From the NCBI GenBank assembly GCA_964106645.2, contig OZ067052.1: DNA of 64,000 bases; one strand, 5' to 3'. Position 1 is the stretch's first letter; each line of letters starts with the position of its first letter. Source of the stretch: Podarcis pityusensis. Taxonomy: Eukaryota. Of the stretch, positions 10,003-45,090 are shown piece by piece. The translations under genes and the position numbers were made by a program. The notes under the pieces were generated by a model. It had not been told where the DNA came from. It searched no databases and saw only the letters and a program-made list of their open reading frames with translations.

Positions 10003-10089
10003 CAGTGTGGGTCTGCCTGTGGGTCTCCAGAGCATCTTCTTTTGAGAACTGAGCTCCGCAGTGGTCACAGACAAAGGCTTTGGCACCCG
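10003..10089 (-). CDS. ZBTB16: ZBTB16/PLZF coding exon 4 (C2H2 finger 3): (A)GAKAFVCDHCGAQFSKEDALETHRQTHT(G)
   Basis: Not in the ORF track; read manually. Acceptor (tc)14tttatag|CGG, donor CTG|gtaggt. 87 nt, phase 1-1. The final G of exon 3 plus CG gives GCG (Ala), continuing the PLZF frame (LLAHS-A-GAKAFVC). Confidence 0.97.
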
Positions 10090-18165: not shown

Positions 18166-19523
18166 TGCCCTGGGAAGCTGCTTGGGAAGCGGTTGCCCTG
18201 GGTGCAAAATGCTCAGGGGTGCAAAATTTCAACACTTGATGCTGCCTCAATACAGCCACATGCTTCCATTGCTGGGCTCCATTGAAAATGGCTTCTCTAT
18301 ATGAACCATGAAGTGACCTCTCCAGACAACGGAATGACACTTCTTTTCTTATCTCTGTGGCTGCCATCTCCTGGGCGACGCAGACACCGTTAGGCAGTTG
18401 AATGCGCATGTGTACTCCGTCTGCTTCCCTCTGTCCCACCTACCCTCTCCACATGGGCCTAAAGTGCCGGCAACCCACGCTACGTCACTGGCAGAGATGA
18501 CACTGCAGGGTCACTAGCCTTTTGGGGTCAGTGGGCATATTCGGAATTTTGAGAAAATATCATGGCCACTGGTCACAAAATGGCTGCCACCATATAGCAC
18601 AAAATTACTGCTATACCCGTGTGGTATAAAACAAAATGCCTGCCGCAACTAAAAACCAGAAAAGAGCCATCTCAAAAAAGTCCGGGCATACCCTCTCATT
18701 TATGGGGAAAAAAGCAGCTGCCTCAGCCGCTGCCACACTCATTCACAGAGAGAAGCAACGTGTACCTCTCCTCTGTTTGGGATGGAAGGGAAGGGAAGGA
18801 GGGTTTCTGACCCTGGCATCCAATGAAATGTTGTCATGCTTAAGGAAGCATGTTCAATGTAGGAGATAGAGACATTGGGCCAGGGCAAATAGTCCCTTTT
18901 GCATTATGGGTTTTTGAAGGGATGTTCACTGAGACCATTCACAGGCCCCCATGAGAGGGGCTGGTGGGCGCAGTGGTACTCATGGAAGCCATGCTGGCAA
19001 GTCATGTGATATTGGGTAGATGGACCAATGTACCTGGTTTCTGGCAGTGGCACAGACTCACACATTAGCCAAAAAAGAGCATTTCCTGGGGAGAATAAGT
19101 GGGCGCCTTCTTTTCATTGACAGGTTCGGACTGGGCAACATATCTGGGGTAGCAAACCCTGTTTTTCTACCCCAGTGATACTTGGCCAGAAAGGTTGAGG
19201 TGCATGGAGCCATTTCCTATGCAAAGACATCCCCACCCCCATAGGAACATTGTGGCCCAGGGCTCTGGGGATGAAATTTAACCCATGGTGAAAAGGGATG
19301 GACTATATAGCTTTTAAGAAGAAATGAACAAAGCAAAATACTTCCGCAAGTAAACAGGGAGAAGAAATGGAAGAAATACTTCTGAGCAACGAATAACAAG
19401 TGGAGCATTGCCCTCATCTATTGGGGAGGTTGTTTTTTTTAACAGGGGGGAAGAATCCTGGAGATTTTAAAATAAACATCTTGAATGTTCTGATGAGATA
19501 CGCATGCTTGGTTATATAAGGGG

Positions 19524-19693
19524 AGTACAGAGCGTACCAAAACAGCCGACCCGCAAAAGCTGTCAGAACAATAAGTGCAGACACAGGGCATCTTACGACA
19601 GGCTACGCCGTACAGTTTTATTTACAGTACCTCTTATCAGTCAGGGAACAGTACGCAGCCTGCCAATTTTCAAAGGCTAGAACTGGGTGTTCT
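19524..19693. promoter_or_regulatory. Cluster of three steroid (GR/AR/PR/MR) response element-like IR3 sites
   Basis: AGTACAgagCGTACC 19524-19538, AGAACAataAGTGCA 19565-19579, AGAACTgggTGTTCT 19679-19693, all in repeat-free sequence. Confidence 0.6.
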
Positions 19694-24240: not shown

Positions 24241-26337
24241 CACAAAACAGAGCAACACCATAAGGACATAAGAGGGAGTGTTGCTGGATGAGGCCAAGCG
24301 CTCATCTAGAATGACATCCTGTTCTTGCAGTGGCTGTGCGTCCACTCTTTCCTGCAAACATTGGGGGAATCAGCTGAACAGACCAGAAAAGGGGCAGTCA
24401 GGAGTGGGTGGGAGCAGAACAGAAAGCATTTGCTGGCCTTGAATATAAAACCATTGAATTCCATTTGGCAAATCTTCCGGAAAAAAAGGTTAGCACCTGG
24501 ACATCCACAAATCCTTCTCTGAACTCTTACCTATTTTGCATTCGTTTAAAGAAGAAGAAACAAAATAGATTCTCTTCTACCTCCCCTGGGCTTTGGCGCT
24601 GAAAAATGCAGAGGCAATTGATCAGCTGCCAGCTGTCTGCCCCAGCTCCTTAGAATAAAGCAGCAGCAAGTCTTTAATATCTGTCTATATCTTCTGCAAA
24701 ACATCCATCGGGTCACAAAATACGCAGCCGGTTAAAGGATAGCAGGCGGGGGGGGGGAGCCTCCAAACACACTCATCTGTTCTGAAAGCACCGCTTTGCT
24801 ATTTTTAGACACCCCATAATACTCCCCAATACCCATTCAGTTTAATGGCTTTATTGAGGAGAAGAACTGGGGCTCCCTGGTTCGTGGCACTTCTGATGTT
24901 AGGAAGTAGTAAAAATCTTCTAACTGGTTAAAAATGACACTCGTCCAATTGCCTTTGGTGTGTCTAAAACCTTAATTGTCGTCACCCAGCCTGCTGGATG
25001 TAAAGATTCTCGCCGGTTTTCATAGCTTTGATTTCTACTTTCTTCTCCCCATAATTGAGGTGTTACATTACATGGTGCTGTGCTTGGCATTTTCAGAAAG
25101 GGGCAAGGAGCTGGACACCTAAGCACTCTGACGACCAAGAAGCTTTGCATACAAAACAGGAGGGGGAAAAAACTTCTTCCTGGGTGGCATTCAGAGTTTC
25201 CCTTCATCTTTTTCTCTTTCATTTTAGGCCACGCAAGAAGCAAGTGCACTAAACTGTGCACTTTTCCTGTATTATTATCAGAGTATTATTAAAGTGTACC
25301 TGGCAACTAAAAATGACATCAAAATTGCTGCCTGAGAAACTAGAAAGATCTGGGTTGTAACGGAGGAACTGAAAACAGGTAATGTTGAGAATACACAACC
25401 GGCGATTAAAGTTTCAGGCAAAGGTGGGGGAGAAGGTAAGATCACTAAGCAGAATTGCTGTCTATAGCCACCATTAGTTTAATTTTATGGGGAAGCAACA
25501 GGCATAAGTTGCTATAGCACAAGAGACATATTCTTCTTTCAGCAGAGGCCAACCAAAAGATGATTCCGACTTCCCAAACAGCCCCATTTTTCTTTTAAGT
25601 AAGTCAGTTCAAATTTACAATTCCATGTTCTCAAGCAGATCACTGAAGAGCATCTGTTCAAACACTAAAATGACCTCGACATTTTTCTCTCTCCCCTTTG
25701 TTTAGGTGTACGAATGCCTTATGTGAATCTGCCTGCCCCTCACCCCACCCTCTGCCGCTGTCCACTACAAGGCCAGGTAAACAATGATTCATATTTTCCC
25801 AAACCTAGCCATTTTATAATTTAGCAAGGTGCCCGTTGTTCTGTATCCATTAAACTGTTCTTAACTGCGGCGACATTTGAGGAGGAGGAGGATGGAAGGA
25901 GATGAAGAGTGAGAGAACGATGGGAAGGAACTGTAAGAAGGTAAGTCAGGAAGGATTCAGAATGGTCAGATAAGGGACTTGCAGATTTTGCCAGGAACAG
26001 GAGTCACACTAAGAGACACCAGGAGAAGAATGCCATCTCTTCCAAGTTCAGCTAAGTCAACAGCACTTGTGAGGACAGGTGAAAAGATGAATAAGCTTGA
26101 AGCAGCATTCACTTCAGGGTAGGAGTGATACAACACTTACCACCTCTTAGGCATAAGAGTAAGACCATTTCTCACCTGTACTACCAAGACATCTTAATGC
26201 TAGTGCTGCTTTCTTTGGCAGCATAAGCCTGTTTGCCAAAACCCATTCAATGTGTCTATTCCTGTTGCTGATACCCTTTATGGGTGCCAACAAAGGCCTA
26301 CCCCATTGGCCGGCCTTCTGCATTCATCCTTCTAGAG

Positions 26338-31599: not shown

Positions 31600-31750
31600 A
31601 GAAAGTAAGGTTATTACATAATTGCTGCTCCCCCACCCTTAAAGTAATGTTCTATCCAACAGACTGAGCTGGGAAGGGGTGGGGTGGGATGGGGGCGATG
31701 GCAACAAACCCCATTCCAAAAAACCCAACAGCCTGTGTTCCGTTTCAGAA

Positions 31751-31765
31751 GGCACAGAGTGTACT
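31751..31765. promoter_or_regulatory. Steroid response element-like site GGCACAgagTGTACT
   Basis: Matches all eight core positions GnACAnnnTGTnC. Confidence 0.55.
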
Positions 31766-32921
31766 GTACGGCCTATAAAACTCCAAAACAGCCTCCAGAC
31801 ACTTCTGCAATCGTCCTCCATCAAAACACTTTGCCTTGCATACAAAAATAAGATACAGGGCTGAACGGAATACACAATCAGGCCATTACAGTACAGGGAG
31901 GCTGCTACTTAGCAACGAGGGGGCTTTAAAGCTGAGATGCAGGAGAGGAAGCAGAAATCTGTCGAGCCTGTTGGGCAAATGATAAACATTAGCAGGTTTT
32001 TGTTGGGTTGGGTTGGGGGGGGGTTGAAGGGGGAACTACAGAAGCCGTGCAAAAAAAAAAAAGAGGGGGGTGAGGAACAATAGTGTGTGTGCTTTTTTGG
32101 ACTGCGTACATTAAAATAACAAAAGGGGGAAAGGAGAGGGCAAAGGTTCTGAATAAATAAATCAGCTCATCATCTGATCTTCAGCTGACGGCTAGCTGCA
32201 AACATGGTTGAAGTCCCGTTGCCTCCACACCACCCACCGCCCCCAAAGGATGGAAGGGTGTTTTCTAATACAGTGACCTCCGCTGAACTCTTAGAATGTT
32301 CTCTATCTCATGCAGAGGTCTACCAGCTTTTTAAAAAATGAAATGAAATGAAAACATGAAGGGCTGGCCAGAGGGTGGAGAACCCATACAGTTCGCAGAA
32401 CCGCCAACGGCACCGGACAAAAATAATCCATGACTTATTGGCTTTCAGAAGGGTCTCTTGGTGCACGGTCTGGGGGGGGAAGGGGGGGCTCTCGTCAGAA
32501 CGCCGCAAATAGCGGAACGGAAGGGAGCTTTAAAAACAAGAACGAGAGACAGCAAACAGGAGTGCTGAGAAATAAAATGTATTTCATCAGGTAAAGGTTG
32601 CTGGGGGTGGGGGTGCGGGAGGGGAGGGAAACATGCTGGCTGGCTGGCTGGCTGCATCAGCAGCAGCGAAGATCTTTGCCAGAACAGGAGCTCAGACGCA
32701 AAACCATATTATTCTAGTCAGCTTAAACTCTGAAAGCTGGGGGGGGGGGTGGTTTGAAAGGCAGGAAGGCGGGGTGGGGGAGAGAGAAAGAAATGTATTT
32801 TTCATCAGCAAGTGTATAATTTATAAACAGCATTAAACAGTTTGTGTTTTCTTTCTCTCTCTCTCCCCCCCCCCTTCTCTTGGGTTGGACAGCACTCAAG
32901 CCTGCATTAATTTCTGCTCTG

Positions 32922-32936
32922 GGTACAGTGTGTTCT
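32922..32936. promoter_or_regulatory. Perfect consensus GRE/ARE/PRE GGTACAgtgTGTTCT
   Basis: 12/12 match to GGTACAnnnTGTTCT in repeat-free sequence of a known steroid-induced gene. Confidence 0.7.
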
Positions 32937-33387
32937 TGGAGCCGCATCTGCCAGTGATCATAAACTCTCTGGAATGCTGGCAGAACATCCAGACCCTGCC
33001 AGCAAGCCGATGACATCACTCTGGGAATAAATTCGGGATGGCGGCCAAAACTCGAGGCGGCGAGAAGGGGAGGGAAGAAAAGGAAGAGAGTGGTTTTTTT
33101 TTAGAGAGACTCTGGAACAACATGAGCACTTCCTTTTCCTCTTGCTCTTTAAAAAGCCCGCTCCTTTGGGTTGCATCCAACTCACTTTTACTCAGAGTAG
33201 ACCTACTGGAATTAGGGGACCGAAGTCAGCTATGCCTGTTGGCTTCAATGGGTCTGCTCTCAGCATGACGGACATTGAATGGAGGCAACTTAGAGTAGGT
33301 GATGGCCTCCTGTTGTTCGGCTCCAACTCCCACTAGTCCCAGCCAGCGTGGGCAGTGGCCAAGGATGCTGGGAACTGGAGGCCAACT

Positions 33388-33510
33388 GGGATAGCTCAGT
33401 TGGTAGAGCATGAGACTCTTAAGCTCAGGATTGTGAGTTCGAGTCCCATGTTAGATGAAATATTTCTGCATTGCAGGGGATTGGAATAGGCGAGCCTTCC
33501 AATTCTGTGA
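33388..33510 (+). mobile_element. tRNA-Lys(CTT)-headed SINE with CR1 tail, inserted into a small hAT MITE
   Basis: atagctcagttggtagagcatgagactcttaagctcagg...gttcgagtccca, then ttctgcattgcaggggattgga...ccttccaattctgtga. MITE halves lie at ~33305-33386 and ~33510-33545. Confidence 0.85.
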
Positions 33511-36431
33511 ACATATGGAGGGCCCCAGATCAGCCACTCTGATCTAGAGGAAAAGATTTTTAAAGGTGTCCCTAGAACTAGTTGAAAATAAGTCTTTGAG
33601 GGCAACAGTGAAAGGAAGGGAGGGAGAGACCAATGCCAAATGACTCATGTTAAAGGAGGGCTGAGTGGATACCATGGAATATTCATAAACAGTCTCACTG
33701 TTTAGGGGGGGAAAGAAAGCACAAGAATATTGACACACCGTGCCGATTCTTTGAATGATGTGGGAAACTTGTTTGACTAAGGGAAGTGGAGTAGAATAGA
33801 GGCAAGGCACTGGATATTGTGGGTGGAAAGGGTGCAAGGTGCAGGAGCAGGAAAATGAGAAAGTACGGAGTCCAGTGGCAGGAAGAACAAGAGGCAGGAG
33901 GGTGGAGAAGGAAAGGAGGCCAATAAACTCATTCCCCATGAATTCTCCTCATTTCTGAAGCACACAGGCTTTGGTCAAGAAGGTTGCAACTGGGTAGCAA
34001 GAAGATAGTCCTGATTATTATTGGAGGGAAGCAAGACTTGGGGTGTTAGATAGGGTTGCATTTGAGGCCTTGCATCAAAATAAGCAGGATAAGGAGGGCT
34101 GCTGGTAACAGTTCGGTTGCTGTCTCTCCCCCCCCTCCCCATTTAGACCTTCTTTTGTTATCCAGTGCATTTTGCCACCCCTTGTTCAGCAGCCTCATCT
34201 GCACCAGGCTGCCAAATCCACCCGTCTGTCTCTAGCAGGACACTTCTCTATTCTTGTCACACAAGAAGCTGTAGTCGAATAGCCGGCACTGCCTCATCTT
34301 CCCTTCATGGAGACATAAACATCAGAGGGAAGGGAAAGGAAGGCAGCTTCTCCCTTTCAAGGCTCTCATGAAGAAAGAGGAAGTGGGTGACAAGAAGACA
34401 GACCCCCCCGGGACCCCCAAATTTCAATTGCAACCAGTATATTGCTCCAGCAGTCATGGTGCAAAGGTTGCTTGAAGTTGACTGTTCATATAAACAACAA
34501 CAGACCCAGAATGAGCTAAAAGGTGAGACTTCTATGGTGAGGGACTTCTCCATTTACTTATGTCATCAGATCAACAGGTACCATGGACACTCAAGGTGCT
34601 ATATAGATCTATCATAATTTGGGAGGCGTTAAAAAGCATCCTCCACTTTCAAAATGGCATAAGATCTGTGGATCTTGGGGGACGCTGATGGCAACTCACT
34701 CACGGTGGCAAGACTTGGGTCATCAACGTACAACCCAGCTTCAGAGTTTGCCTTTGCAGCCCTGCTCACTGGGAGCAGAAATGCCCCGCCACATTGATGA
34801 GGGCATATGACCGGGTTGGAAAGATCTATGGGGGAAATGGATTGCTGCCACTCTCATTCACCTGAAACCCATCCTCAACCCATCTCTGCAATTGCCAAAA
34901 TAACCCTCACTGAGGAACCGGAGCAGAGATGGGCATCTTGGGCTCCTTATCCTGGCACACTAGTCTACTCCTCTCTGCCCAAAGCAAAAGGGTCACACGG
35001 GTGAGTTAGGAGGCAGAAAGTGTGGCCAATCTGAGTTGGATCCAGAGTTTGTAGTTACCTAATGGGGCCTTAGGAGCATTCCATTTTTACCATATGCCAC
35101 TGCCCCACGTGTTCCATGCCTATGTTAACAAATAGGGTTTGTGTGCTTTGGATACCTATAGTTATTTCAAGCATGCATGCAATGGTTGCTATAAACACTG
35201 CCATGAGAAAGCACACCCACACAAAACTATAGACAGAAAGGACAATGATGGAGTGGTTTTATTGGAGAGTGGCACTGTAAGTATTGATCTTTATGCCACT
35301 TGGTACAACATTTCGCAACACTGTGCCTCTGTGCTCTTTGTAGTGCCCATGTTGTGACTGTCTGCTCATCGGCCTTACAAAGGCACCATATGCAAAAATT
35401 ACATTGTTATTATTTCTAAATATTATTCAGCTCATTATCTGCTTTGCACAAACGTTTCAAGCAAACGTACAAATGCAAGCAAATGCATGATGCAACAGAG
35501 GAAAACAAAATATTTAAAAAACAAAGCAGTCAAACCATAACAACAAGCTCACCGCTACCTAACATGGGTATCGTCAACAAAAAAGGGGAGAGGATAATCA
35601 ACGGCTGGCAGGAAAAGAAACAACACTCAAATGCCGGGGAGAAGAGAACCTATTAGTCTGGCTGTTGTTGCCAGGCGAGCCTCCCTGGGGTGAGCATTGC
35701 ATAGACAGGGAGCCATCACCAAAAAGACCTCTTCATTTTTAGGAATTTGCTTTGGGCATGATCCTCTGGAAGTGGAAGTGGGTAGAAAACACCCCTCGAG
35801 AGCATTCTGAACAGCAAGCTACACCAGCCCACTCATAAGATGAAAGGAAAATGAAAGGGAGATAGAAGAATCCACACCTGGGGCCCAGTAGATATTTTGC
35901 TTACGCACCTACATGGTTTAAGAGTGGATTAGAGAAATTGCTGGAAGAAGAGGGTGCAGGATTAGGAAGGGCTCTTAGCTGCTATGGCTCAGTGGAGATC
36001 TCTTGCTTTCAAGGGACCTGGTTAGCCACTGCACTGCCCCATCTCTTCTGCTTTCCTAAGATTCACTCAGAAATAATCTGGAAGTGTGTTTCTGATTTAC
36101 CCTCCTGGTTCCCAATCCAACAAGTGATCTGTGGTCAGGTTTCCCTAGATGGATCAGGGTGGGGAGCCATCAGACAAGGGTGTTAGCAGAAATATTGTTT
36201 CCTCTTTGCATTATTGTCCCCTTTTCCTCCCTTCTCCAACCACATCCCCCCTTCCAGTTCTGCAAAACTGTGTCGCTAAGATCACATTCACTGCCAATCT
36301 GATTTGGGGAAGATTTCTTGGCTCTAAAACCATGACGACTGAAACCTAGGGATGAACCTAAACCATCACATTATCCCAAATAAAACTATCAGGTTGCCTC
36401 TCTGTCGCACACCCAGAATCCTAGTCAAAGC

Positions 36432-37337
36432 CAGGGTGGATAAAAATCAATGATCTAAATTTAAAAAATAAATAAATCAGATTTTAAAAATTTAAATTGG
36501 ATTTTTAAAATAAAATGCTTTTGTAGGAAAAAATCTTTCTAAAGATAGTTTTCTATTTAAGTTACATTATAGTCAAAAGGAGATTCATCAGGAAATAAGG
36601 ATTTGTTTTAAGTTCTTCATGTGTGCTAAAACTCAGTCTAAGGTGTGGGTTTTTTTAATGTTTAACCACATCAGCTAACAAACATGAATACATATGCTAT
36701 AATGTTATTGTTTTAGTTCAGGGATGTCCAACCAGTAGATCGCAATCTACTGGTAGATCCCTGGCTGATCCTGGTAGATCATGGGATCCTTATCAAGTAC
36801 AAAAAGTTAAGAGGGGAAAGCTTAACAACTCTGGGCAATCCATCCACCCACCTCACGCACAATCCTCCTCCCTCCAGTGACAATGGGTAGACCACTGCCA
36901 GTTTTTTTATACTGGGAGTAGATCGCAGTCTCTTGGGAGTTGGACACGCCTCTTTAGTTAAATAAATTGTTTAAATTGTTATCAAGGAAATTATTATTTT
37001 TCTCCTCCCAATAAAGTACAGCAGAAAAGTTCTCCAAATACAAACAGTTAACTTATTAAACCTCACAATAATTTCATAATTATCACTCTATGTATTTTAA
37101 TAGTATAACCAAATCCTGTAATTTTTGATATAACTGTAAAAAAACCACTCTGAAAATTTATTATTCCAAAAATGAAACCTTCCTCTTGTTGTAAATATTA
37201 AGATTATACCAGCAAGAATTAGTCTTTCTGCAAATAAATAAATAAATAAATAAATCAAGTCTTACTGACTAGTGATTTCAATCGTGATTTCAATCAATTT
37301 GATTTCAATCAATTTGATTTCAATCGAACCCACCCTG
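36432..37337. mobile_element. Non-autonomous hAT element (Tip100/Zaphod-like ends), 906 bp including nested insert
   Basis: Perfect 8 bp TSD gtcaaagc (36424-36431, 37338-37345), ends cagggtgg / ccaccctg, four subterminal gatttcaatc repeats. Confidence 0.9.
36719..36951. mobile_element. Nested hAT MITE related to 26338-26757
   Basis: cagggatgtccaac start, gttggacacgcct end, TSD ttttagtt/ctttagtt, gtagatc subterminal repeats. Confidence 0.85.
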
Positions 37338-37629
37338 GTCAAAGCTAAGCCATTCTTAGGAGCACAGGAAGATGCCTTATATACCATGTCATGTCCTTGG
37401 TCCATCAAGCTCAGTATTGCAGTATTATAGCTGCCCTCCAGGGTTTCATATGGGAGACAAATCCCAGCTGTACCTGGATATGCCCCACCAGGAATCTCAT
37501 CAGCTCTTCTCTCTTTAGGGCTGGTCCATTTGTGAGTGGCTGCATTTCCGGTGGACACAGACTCAGAGAATGGTGAGAAGAGGCCCACAACAAGGATTTC
37601 AGTCCTCCGGCACACGATACAAAGATACA

Positions 37630-38010
37630 CACATTTCTGATGGCAGCGCGGCAGCCCTGACCTCCATAGGGCACGCGGGAACAAGGGCTGCCCTGATCAA
37701 TCCTGTTATTTAATGCGAGGGTTTATCGTTTGCTAATTGATTTCTTAAAATAAAAAAACCTCTATCATCAGGTATTGCTCGTAAACACTTGATTAGTTAA
37801 CGCGCATCCAAAGTGAAATTAAAAAACGCCACACACACGCTGCTCTAACTTCAATTAAGCCCGAGGTTTTACAACGATATAGCCAAATACTACAAAACAT
37901 GTTAAGTGCAGGCAGGGGTGGGAAATGGGACAGACAGCAGATAGGGGGGCTGGCTGGTCCACCTAGGGAGTCAATTTCTAATTAAACAAGTTGTGAATTT
38001 ATCCGAGAGA
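37630..38010. promoter_or_regulatory. Candidate conserved non-coding element (intron 3)
   Basis: Repeat-free and AT-rich with retained CpGs, many TAAT/ATTA motifs, GTAAACA, ATCAAT. Confidence 0.5.
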
Positions 38011-38326
38011 GAGAGAGAGAAAGAGAGAGAAAGAAACAGGTTTTTAAAAAAACAATCTGTTGTTCCAGTGTTAAGAGGAGGCCTTCATTCAGTCAAATCA
38101 GTGTAAGCTTATCTGGGGATGGAGGGAGAGCAAAAAAAGGAGGGTGGGGGCAGAGAAAGTTGGAATAAAACAGCCCAAGGGGGTGCCGGTAGCTTTCATA
38201 AACAACAGCCCTGGAATTTAACGCGGTTGTTTTCGAGCACCAGAGCAGCTCCTCCCTCCCACCCAGGCAGGCAGGAAAGGGGGAAAAAAAAACCTTTCAT
38301 GATGACAAACTTGGCTCAACGCTCAC

Positions 38327-38341
38327 TGTACATACTGTACC
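38327..38341. promoter_or_regulatory. Steroid response element-like site TGTACAtacTGTACC
   Basis: Matches all eight core positions and sits beside a CpG-rich patch at 38400-38590. Confidence 0.55.
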
Positions 38342-38785
38342 CGCAAAGCAGGCAGGCAGCCAGCCAGCTGCTGGCACTGGGCCAAAACGACAACAACAAA
38401 CAGAGGCAGCGTGCGCCAGAGAGGAGAGGGAGGGAGGGAGGGGAAGGGAAAACACAGCTGAGAGGCAGCAGAGCGTTCTCTCCACACGGGCCGACACCGT
38501 GCTGTCCCCACCGCCGGACAGCGCGATGGGACGCTGGGGAATCGCCGGCAGGTTTGGCCAAACCTGGTTTTGCAATCCGGGTATTCGGTGGTTACAGAAT
38601 ATTCACACACAAACACACACAAACACACACACACACACAAACACACACACCACTCTCTCTTGCATGCACGCATGAACACAAAACATGAATTCTGCATATC
38701 TTGTTTCCTAACATGATCTATTCAGCCAGCCGGCTGCTTGCATGGACTCAAAAGCTGGATTTGGGGTCTGGTTTCAAGGTAATGA

Positions 38786-44070: not shown

Positions 44071-44379
44071 GTACTGGCCAACAGCCCACACAGCAAGCTG
44101 CAGACACAAAATAATCTATGCAAAATAAGAAAAGCTGTTCCGTTCTTACAAGTTGGGACCTAACTCAGGCTGCTGACCAGGTATGTGAGCTTTCCGTTAT
44201 CACACAAGCATCCTCAACAGGCAGACCAGAGCAATATTTCACAGGGATGAAAAGGGAACAAGTTGGGTCACAGGTTAATAGCAAAGAGGGCCAATTGTCA
44301 GCAAACAGCTCAGTTTGGTGGCTTTGTAAAACCTTGTTCTACACACACCTGTGATTTGATTCATTCTATGTTCTCCATG

Positions 44380-44654
44380 GAACACAGAGTGCTCACTGGA
44401 AGGACAGATCCTGAAGCTGAGGCTCCAATACTTTGGCCACCTCCTGAGAAGAGAAGACTCCCTGGAAAAGACCCTGATGTTGGGAAAGATGGAGGGCACA
44501 AGGAGAAGGGGATGACAGAGGACGAGATGGTTGGACAGTGTTCTCGAAGCTACCAGCATGCGTTTGACCAAACTGCGGGAGGCAGTGGAAGACAGGAGTG
44601 CCTGGTCACAAAGTGTCAAACACAACTAAATGACTAAACAATAACAAACAACAA
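44380..44654 (+). mobile_element. RTE-BovB 3' fragment
   Basis: Matches 14312-14590 with a small internal deletion. Perfect 12 bp TSD atgttctccatg (44368-44379, 44655-44666). Confidence 0.93.
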
Positions 44655-44992: not shown

Positions 44993-45090
44993 CTGAATGA
45001 GCCAATAAGTGCATCCGGAGCCGCAGGCTGTCAAGGAATCTTTTCCCGCACAATTCACACCCATAAGTCTTCATCCCACTGTGCAGTTTC
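44993..45090 (-). CDS. ZBTB16: ZBTB16/PLZF coding exon 3 (end of C2H2 finger 1, linker, finger 2): (R)KLHSGMKTYGCELCGKRFLDSLRLRMHLLAHS
   Basis: Translation matches the PLZF ZF1-ZF2 peptide as I recall it. Acceptor ...tctttctgtag|G (CT at 45091-45092 on +), donor CAG|gtaagt (AC at 44991-44992). 98 nt, phase 2 to phase 1. Confidence 0.97.

Follow-up and report, generated by a model that had tools for sequence, protein, structure and literature searches.

A probable orthologue of the human glucocorticoid receptor enhancer cluster in ZBTB16 intron 3 of the lizard Podarcis pityusensis

Introduction

Distal intronic enhancers made of inverted-repeat glucocorticoid response elements (GREs), with strong glucocorticoid induction, are known from FKBP5. 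A different gene, human ZBTB16 (PLZF), carries the closest described counterpart of the locus considered here, which is intron 3 of ZBTB16 in a 64,000-nucleotide stretch (hereafter the window) of contig OZ067052.1, assembly GCA_964106645.2, of the lizard Podarcis pityusensis. In human cells, the peaks of glucocorticoid receptor (GR) binding numbered 5-8 and 10 have been called highly conserved using a PhyloP track; four of them (5, 6, 8, and 10) contain GR motifs, peak 8 more than one or two, whereas peak 7 lacks them (Karagiannopoulos 2023, PMC10214295). Circular chromosome conformation capture (4C) shows intronic GR sites contacting the ZBTB16 promoter, more so after hormone (Bothe 2021, PMC8403771); among GR-activated super-enhancers of podocytes, the region of the cluster ranks first (PMC8175753); and the intronic enhancer around rs648044 is dexamethasone-responsive, its deletion lowering induction (10.1101/2022.08.21.504700). 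Outside mammals, ZBTB16 goes up with corticosterone in a bird pituitary (PMC8207517), and in zebrafish cortisol raises zbtb16 (PMC12231182).

A sequence-only reading of the window had singled out three strong steroid response motifs within 6.6 kb of this intron and suggested that the hormone-response array of mammals may be conserved in squamates. The motif in question, named a GRE or an androgen, progesterone, or mineralocorticoid response element (ARE, PRE, MRE), is common to GR and to the androgen, progesterone, and mineralocorticoid receptors (AR, PR, MR). In open papers on ZBTB16 in reptiles, lizards and Anolis among them, and in chicken, we found no report of response elements for the reptile gene.

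Results

Human GR-peak primers anchor four elements in lizard intron 3

The locus examined comprised the window and 200 kb of flanking genome (264 kb in all); best hits and ranks refer to this locus throughout. As probes we used 30 published primers for human ZBTB16 GR sites, 10 from Bothe 2021 (PMC8403771), 12 of the 20 in Karagiannopoulos 2023 (PMC10214295), and 8 from Leung 2022 (PMC9440308); eight intron-2 primers of Table S7 of PMC10214295 and two promoter primers of PMC8403771 were outside the set. Six of the 30 had their best hit in four elements of intron 3, here designated E1 to E4, every one on the strand predicted from gene orientation. Four of them lay within 150 bp of sites stated beforehand (P ~2e-7 under a uniform null), and the other two at E3 and E4. 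Among sized primer pairs, three of six were best in the locus within intron 3, with matching amplicon sizes. The order of the elements is colinear with human, so that four of the five human intron-3 peaks are anchored in order; the span is 18.7 kb here versus 19.2 kb in human, and the successive gaps from E1 to E4 are 5.3, 8.1, and 5.3 kb versus 2.8, 10.3, and 6.2 kb. The longer E1-E2 gap may be due to a tRNA-like short interspersed nuclear element (SINE; see below) and other insertions. On this comparison, intron 3 probably holds a GR-led, steroid-inducible enhancer cluster orthologous to the human one and inherited from an ancestor that reptiles and mammals share. The suggestion of a conserved array is supported at 38327 and 32922, where human GR-peak primers map, and not at 31751, which has no human anchor; as to extent, a 6.6-kb triplet was too small, the array comprising at least four elements over ~19 kb, E4 included. 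Coordinates are collected in Table 1.

Table 1. Predicted response elements and flanking exons of ZBTB16 in the window
Feature	Position	Strand	Basis
E1, predicted orthologue of human GR peak hg38 chr11:114,159,912-114,160,415	38213..38414		Primers of three papers (six)
GRE3, inverted-repeat steroid response element TGTACAtacTGTACC	38327..38341		Strict match
E2, likely orthologue of human GR peak hg38 chr11:114,162,764-114,163,180	32922..33128		Primer matches
GRE2, perfect consensus GGTACAgtgTGTTCT	32922..32936		Strict match; top score in 264 kb (hand-built matrix)
GRE1, strong motif GGCACAgagTGTACT	31751..31765		Strict match; third-best score in 264 kb; single-copy
E3, predicted orthologue of human GR peak hg38 chr11:114,173,033-114,173,448	24820..24963		Primer pair
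E4, predicted orthologue of human GR peak hg38 chr11:114,179,131-114,179,656	19498..19693		Primer pair and GR3R
ZBTB16 coding exon 3 (C2H2 finger)	44993..45090, 98 bp	-	Translation and AG/GT splice ends
ZBTB16 coding exon 4 (C2H2 finger)	10003..10089, 87 bp	-	Translation and AG/GT splice ends

At E1, the PMC10214295 pair found its best position in the locus with 30/43 matches and an amplicon of 202 bp (211 bp in human), and the two primers of PMC8403771 pair (3) matched 17/20 at 38295 and 17/20 at 38388, converging across GRE3. From PMC9440308, GR2F matched 16/20 at 38334 and GR2R aligned with gaps at about 38221; the last nine bases of GR2F are identical in GRE3 and make up a whole half-site plus two spacer bases. 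E1 has 19 CpG in 350 bp, the top tile of 95 in the intron. The human rs648044 enhancer presumably lies in the E1 peak.

At E2, the reverse primer of PMC8403771 set (4) is identical over 20/20 bases at 32960-32979, 24 bp from GRE2, with one exact copy in 1.5 Gb. The reverse primer of the PMC10214295 114,162,764 pair matched 14/20 at 33005 (local P ~0.01). Because the best joint hit of that pair is elsewhere in the 264 kb and both forward primers for E2 failed, the human coordinate of E2 is one that we infer. The element also contains two weaker sites that resemble GREs, one at 32982 and one at 33114, and, at 33011, the sequence TGACATCA, which resembles a cAMP response element (CRE) or AP-1 site. 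GRE2 (32921-32942) and the reverse complement of GRE3 (38321-38342) agree in 17 of 22 bases, flanks included; common motif preference or an old duplication may account for this. Between GRE1 and GRE2, a CpG-rich, repeat-free stretch at 32300-32650 (12 CpG, observed/expected 0.57) is possibly part of one larger element.

The E3 pair matched 20/21 and 15/21 bases with an amplicon of 144 bp (141 bp in human); this was the best position in the locus, and 0/25 shuffled pairs reached its score. E3 has no GR motif, its best score being 4.5 with a hand-built matrix. At E4, the pair matched 14/20 and 14/20 bases, 160 bp versus 166 bp in human, again best in the locus and reached by 1/25 shuffled pairs, and PMC9440308 GR3R had its best hit there (16/20 at 19598). 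One-mismatch GREs lie in E4 at 19524, 19565, and 19679 (hand-built matrix scores 13.6, 10.1, and 14.4); its nine CpG are unexceptional, as 16% of intron tiles have as many. In islets, dexamethasone opens the human sites that correspond to E2 and E4, with log2 changes of 1.5 and 2.7 and false discovery rates of 5e-23 and 1e-19 (Aylward 2021, PMC8183998). When human peaks 5, 6, 7, and 8 of PMC10214295 are sorted from left to right as E1, E2, E3, and E4, the presence or absence of motifs agrees.

Strict motifs and the scan of the locus

The three strict sites have the form of a Class I steroid response element, with inverted half-sites and a 3-bp spacer (GnACAnnnTGTnC), as do three further sites in E4 with one mismatch. 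A receptor with a matching DNA-recognition helix can be assumed in this genome from its vertebrate-wide conservation. The sequence-only reading had listed 15-mers at 31751, 32922, and 38327 as the only strict matches in the window; all three are in place, and a pattern scan of the 64 kb returned exactly these. Its background of about one match per 64 kb is close to the genome count of 24,971 sites (1 per 60.7 kb). Enrichment over shuffled sequence is weak by count, three matches against a mean of 1.03 per window, yet with three or more in 9/100 shuffles. Three strict sites within 6.59 kb have P ~0.005 per 64-kb window, which amounts to ~117 windows of this kind by chance over the whole genome, so their clustering is modest, post hoc evidence. 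Motif counting by itself is a lead only, and conservation is the deciding evidence. The description of one site as a perfect GRE is correct for GRE2, which carries the full consensus GGTACAnnnTGTTCT; it is one of 227 copies in the genome, versus 216 for a reversed-pattern control, and has a chance of ~0.5% per 35-kb intron. The placement of the sites outside repeats also stands, in that the 340-400 bp around each is single-copy in a search that skips simple repeats. A repeat origin was rejected, the surroundings being single-copy and sharing no common repeat family.

A matrix scan, which had been proposed as a check, placed 6 of the 15 top sites of the locus in intron 3, where 2.0 are expected (hand-built half-site matrix). 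By rank, E2 holds the best site, GRE1 the third, E4 the fourth and eighth, and E1 the 11th. E4 had been missed because the strict pattern was used. Two further groups of sites came to light. About 600 bp into intron 3, at 44379-44393, is a one-mismatch GRE (score 13.6). In intron 4, 5-18 kb to the left of the window, are strong GRE-like sites at L012:2022, L013:4105, and L013:4848 (scores 15.8, 13.0, and 13.8), which may correspond to the GR peak of human intron 4 at hg38 114,197,742; the primer pair for that peak did not map above shuffles in the 264 kb.

None of the 30 human primers maps to GRE1, and the islet list of the assay for transposase-accessible chromatin (ATAC; PMC8183998), which covers one cell type, has no site in hg19 114,034,073-114,041,988, where GRE1 would fall. 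On both counts GRE1 seems not to belong to a human peak, and it may be a chance, added, or lineage-specific site. It is flanked by C/EBP-like sites at 31614 and 31803, and a TATAAA lies 10 bp to its right (window 31614-31810); the arrangement could mark an enhancer-RNA start or be due to chance.

Gene context

The host gene is ZBTB16, on the minus strand: its BTB domain matches PLZF (1BUO) at E 1e-71, and the 98-bp and 87-bp finger exons enclose a 34.9-kb intron with all four elements. The location of the three strict sites in ZBTB16 intron 3 is confirmed by the finger exons, their splice ends, and the BTB match, with the intron numbered after the human exon structure. In the flanking genome, the BTB exon is ~78 kb upstream, three further finger exons are downstream, and a CpG island is found at about window position 126-129 kb. 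A coding or RNA reading of the elements was rejected, as no finger or other convincing frame was found in them. The sole Rfam match in intron 3 is a tRNA-like stretch (33392-33449, 37.6 bits); with its surroundings (33340-33500) it is likely a tRNA-derived SINE, 400 bp from GRE2. Intron 2 contains a stop-free frame of 414 codons (L016:7897-9138), which we take to resemble a CR1-type reverse transcriptase.

A search of sequencing runs with 31600-33340, restricted to ATAC libraries, listed no runs. An exact 20-mer scan of metagenome contigs gave 0 hits. An exon-3 search of the same contigs found four loci, one of which is ZBTB16 exon 3 (L022, 3.2 kb). In this vertebrate record, too short to contain the elements, exon 3 alone aligned (84%), and the adjoining intron DNA, including the GRE at 44379-44393, has no aligned counterpart. 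Because the intron beside exon 3 is unaligned, background similarity is low; the alignment adds no support for the elements themselves.

Discussion

Binding, opening, looping, and induction are human observations, and for the lizard they are expected by analogy. Corticosterone-bound GR dimers would occupy the inverted-repeat motifs of E1, E2, and E4; neighboring FOX, C/EBP, CRE/AP-1-like, and TEAD-like sites, which we call from consensus sequences with no control, may help chromatin opening; and the motif-free E3 would likely be bound indirectly. Through a loop of about 90-110 kb, the cluster would then contact the CpG-island promoter and raise ZBTB16 transcription; in other tissues, these motifs could also serve AR, PR, and MR.

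Alternative explanations

A chance clustering of the motifs in neutral intron DNA is highly improbable. Three or more sites per window in 9/100 shuffles and the ~117 triplet windows expected genome-wide would fit such an origin, but the unique 20/20 human match, the primer pairs that converge with fitting amplicon sizes, and the colinear order would not, and for GRE2 and GRE3 chance is largely refuted; for GRE1 alone, it is close to an even call. Improbable, too, is a reading of the elements as enhancers conserved for a developmental or immune role under other factors, with the steroid motifs as passengers that confer no hormone response. The best-conserved anchor pair is that of E3, an element that lacks a GR motif; the 20/20 match adjoins GRE2 instead of covering it; and FOX, C/EBP, TEAD, and ETS-like motifs, from the same uncontrolled consensus calls, are found in the elements. 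On the other hand, the probability of a strict site in 350 bp is 0.6%, yet E1 and E2 have one each and E4 has three near-matches, and GRE3 shares one half-site exactly with human.

Conserved steroid-receptor enhancers might instead serve chiefly PR, AR, or MR in this animal, or a neighboring gene, which we regard as unlikely. All four receptors share the motif. In human cells, PR binds ten sites in PLZF introns 1-3 (PMC4817989), and a site near ZBTB16 is common to AR and GR (10.1101/2020.10.15.340877); since PR and AR also bind human ZBTB16, sequence does not separate GR from AR, PR, or MR. However, the human peaks that anchor the elements were defined by GR chromatin immunoprecipitation, the inductions in bird (PMC8207517) and fish (PMC12231182) are by glucocorticoids, and human 4C ties the intronic sites to the ZBTB16 promoter (PMC8403771).

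Several points weigh against an orthologous, GR-led cluster. Homology with human rests on 20-mer probes rather than a full alignment, and 24 of the 30 primers are not best in the locus at the four elements. No mapping above shuffles in the 264 kb was obtained with primers ZBTB16 (1), (2), and (4) forward and the 4C intronic viewpoint pair of PMC8403771, with the 114,180,474 pair and the 114,162,764 forward primer of PMC10214295, or with GR1, GR4, and GR3F of PMC9440308. Three of the six sized pairs failed, including the one expected at E2, and two pair results are individually marginal, being reached by 2/25 and 1/25 shuffles. The comparison of motif bases with human covers one half-site of GRE3, where they are identical. 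Motif scores come from a half-site matrix of our own making instead of one from a database, and the matching of peak numbers is our own reading, because Table S7 of PMC10214295 is in another order. Among the differential islet ATAC rows listed from PMC8183998, none is the human site matching E1, and for mouse Zbtb16 a review gives a promoter half-site only (PMC12795704).

Significance

The human cluster was already known and described as conserved, so surprise is limited. What is new is the base-level location in a reptile, the matching motif pattern, and two elements (E3 and E4) outside the interval of the sequence-only reading. Turnover of GR-bound enhancers between species is generally regarded as rapid. 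A cluster recognizable from human to reptile despite this would mark the induction of ZBTB16 as an ancient feature of the stress response that is under constraint. The elements offer exact coordinates for a candidate tissue-level readout of corticosterone in reptile endocrinology, a candidate methylation mark of past hormone exposure, and an indication of which bases of the human enhancers are worth mutating. More tentatively, and with considerable doubt, the whole four-element architecture, motif-free E3 included, may have held since the amniote ancestor; it would then be among the oldest intact glucocorticoid enhancer clusters, with the human features of hormone-triggered CpG demethylation at E4 or E1 and priming on repeat exposure, and with GRE1 as a reptile-added booster. 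If so, the methylation state of these few hundred bases in the blood of wild reptiles would keep a record of earlier exposure to stress hormones.

Comparison with the human cluster

The lizard elements share with the human peaks of Karagiannopoulos 2023 (PMC10214295) the gene, the intron, the order, near-equal span and amplicon sizes, and the pattern of motifs. Differences are that the human peaks are GR-bound, whereas binding and activity of the lizard elements are predictions; that the lizard has an extra strong motif at 31751 with no listed peak; and that two human peaks, the one in intron 4 and the fifth of intron 3 (114,180,474, described as non-conserved), are unmapped in the lizard. In the cluster of Bothe 2021 (PMC8403771), which has a promoter loop and shows transcriptional priming, sets ZBTB16 (1) and (2) and the 4C intronic viewpoint primers are unmapped in the lizard, whereas set (3) maps to E1 and set (4) to E2. 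Finally, cg25345365 loses methylation after glucocorticoid therapy (Souren 2019, PMC6504952); its hg19 position falls in the human E4 peak, with the build offset taken from overlapping intervals, and lizard E4, its probable counterpart, has nine CpG together with GRE half-sites.

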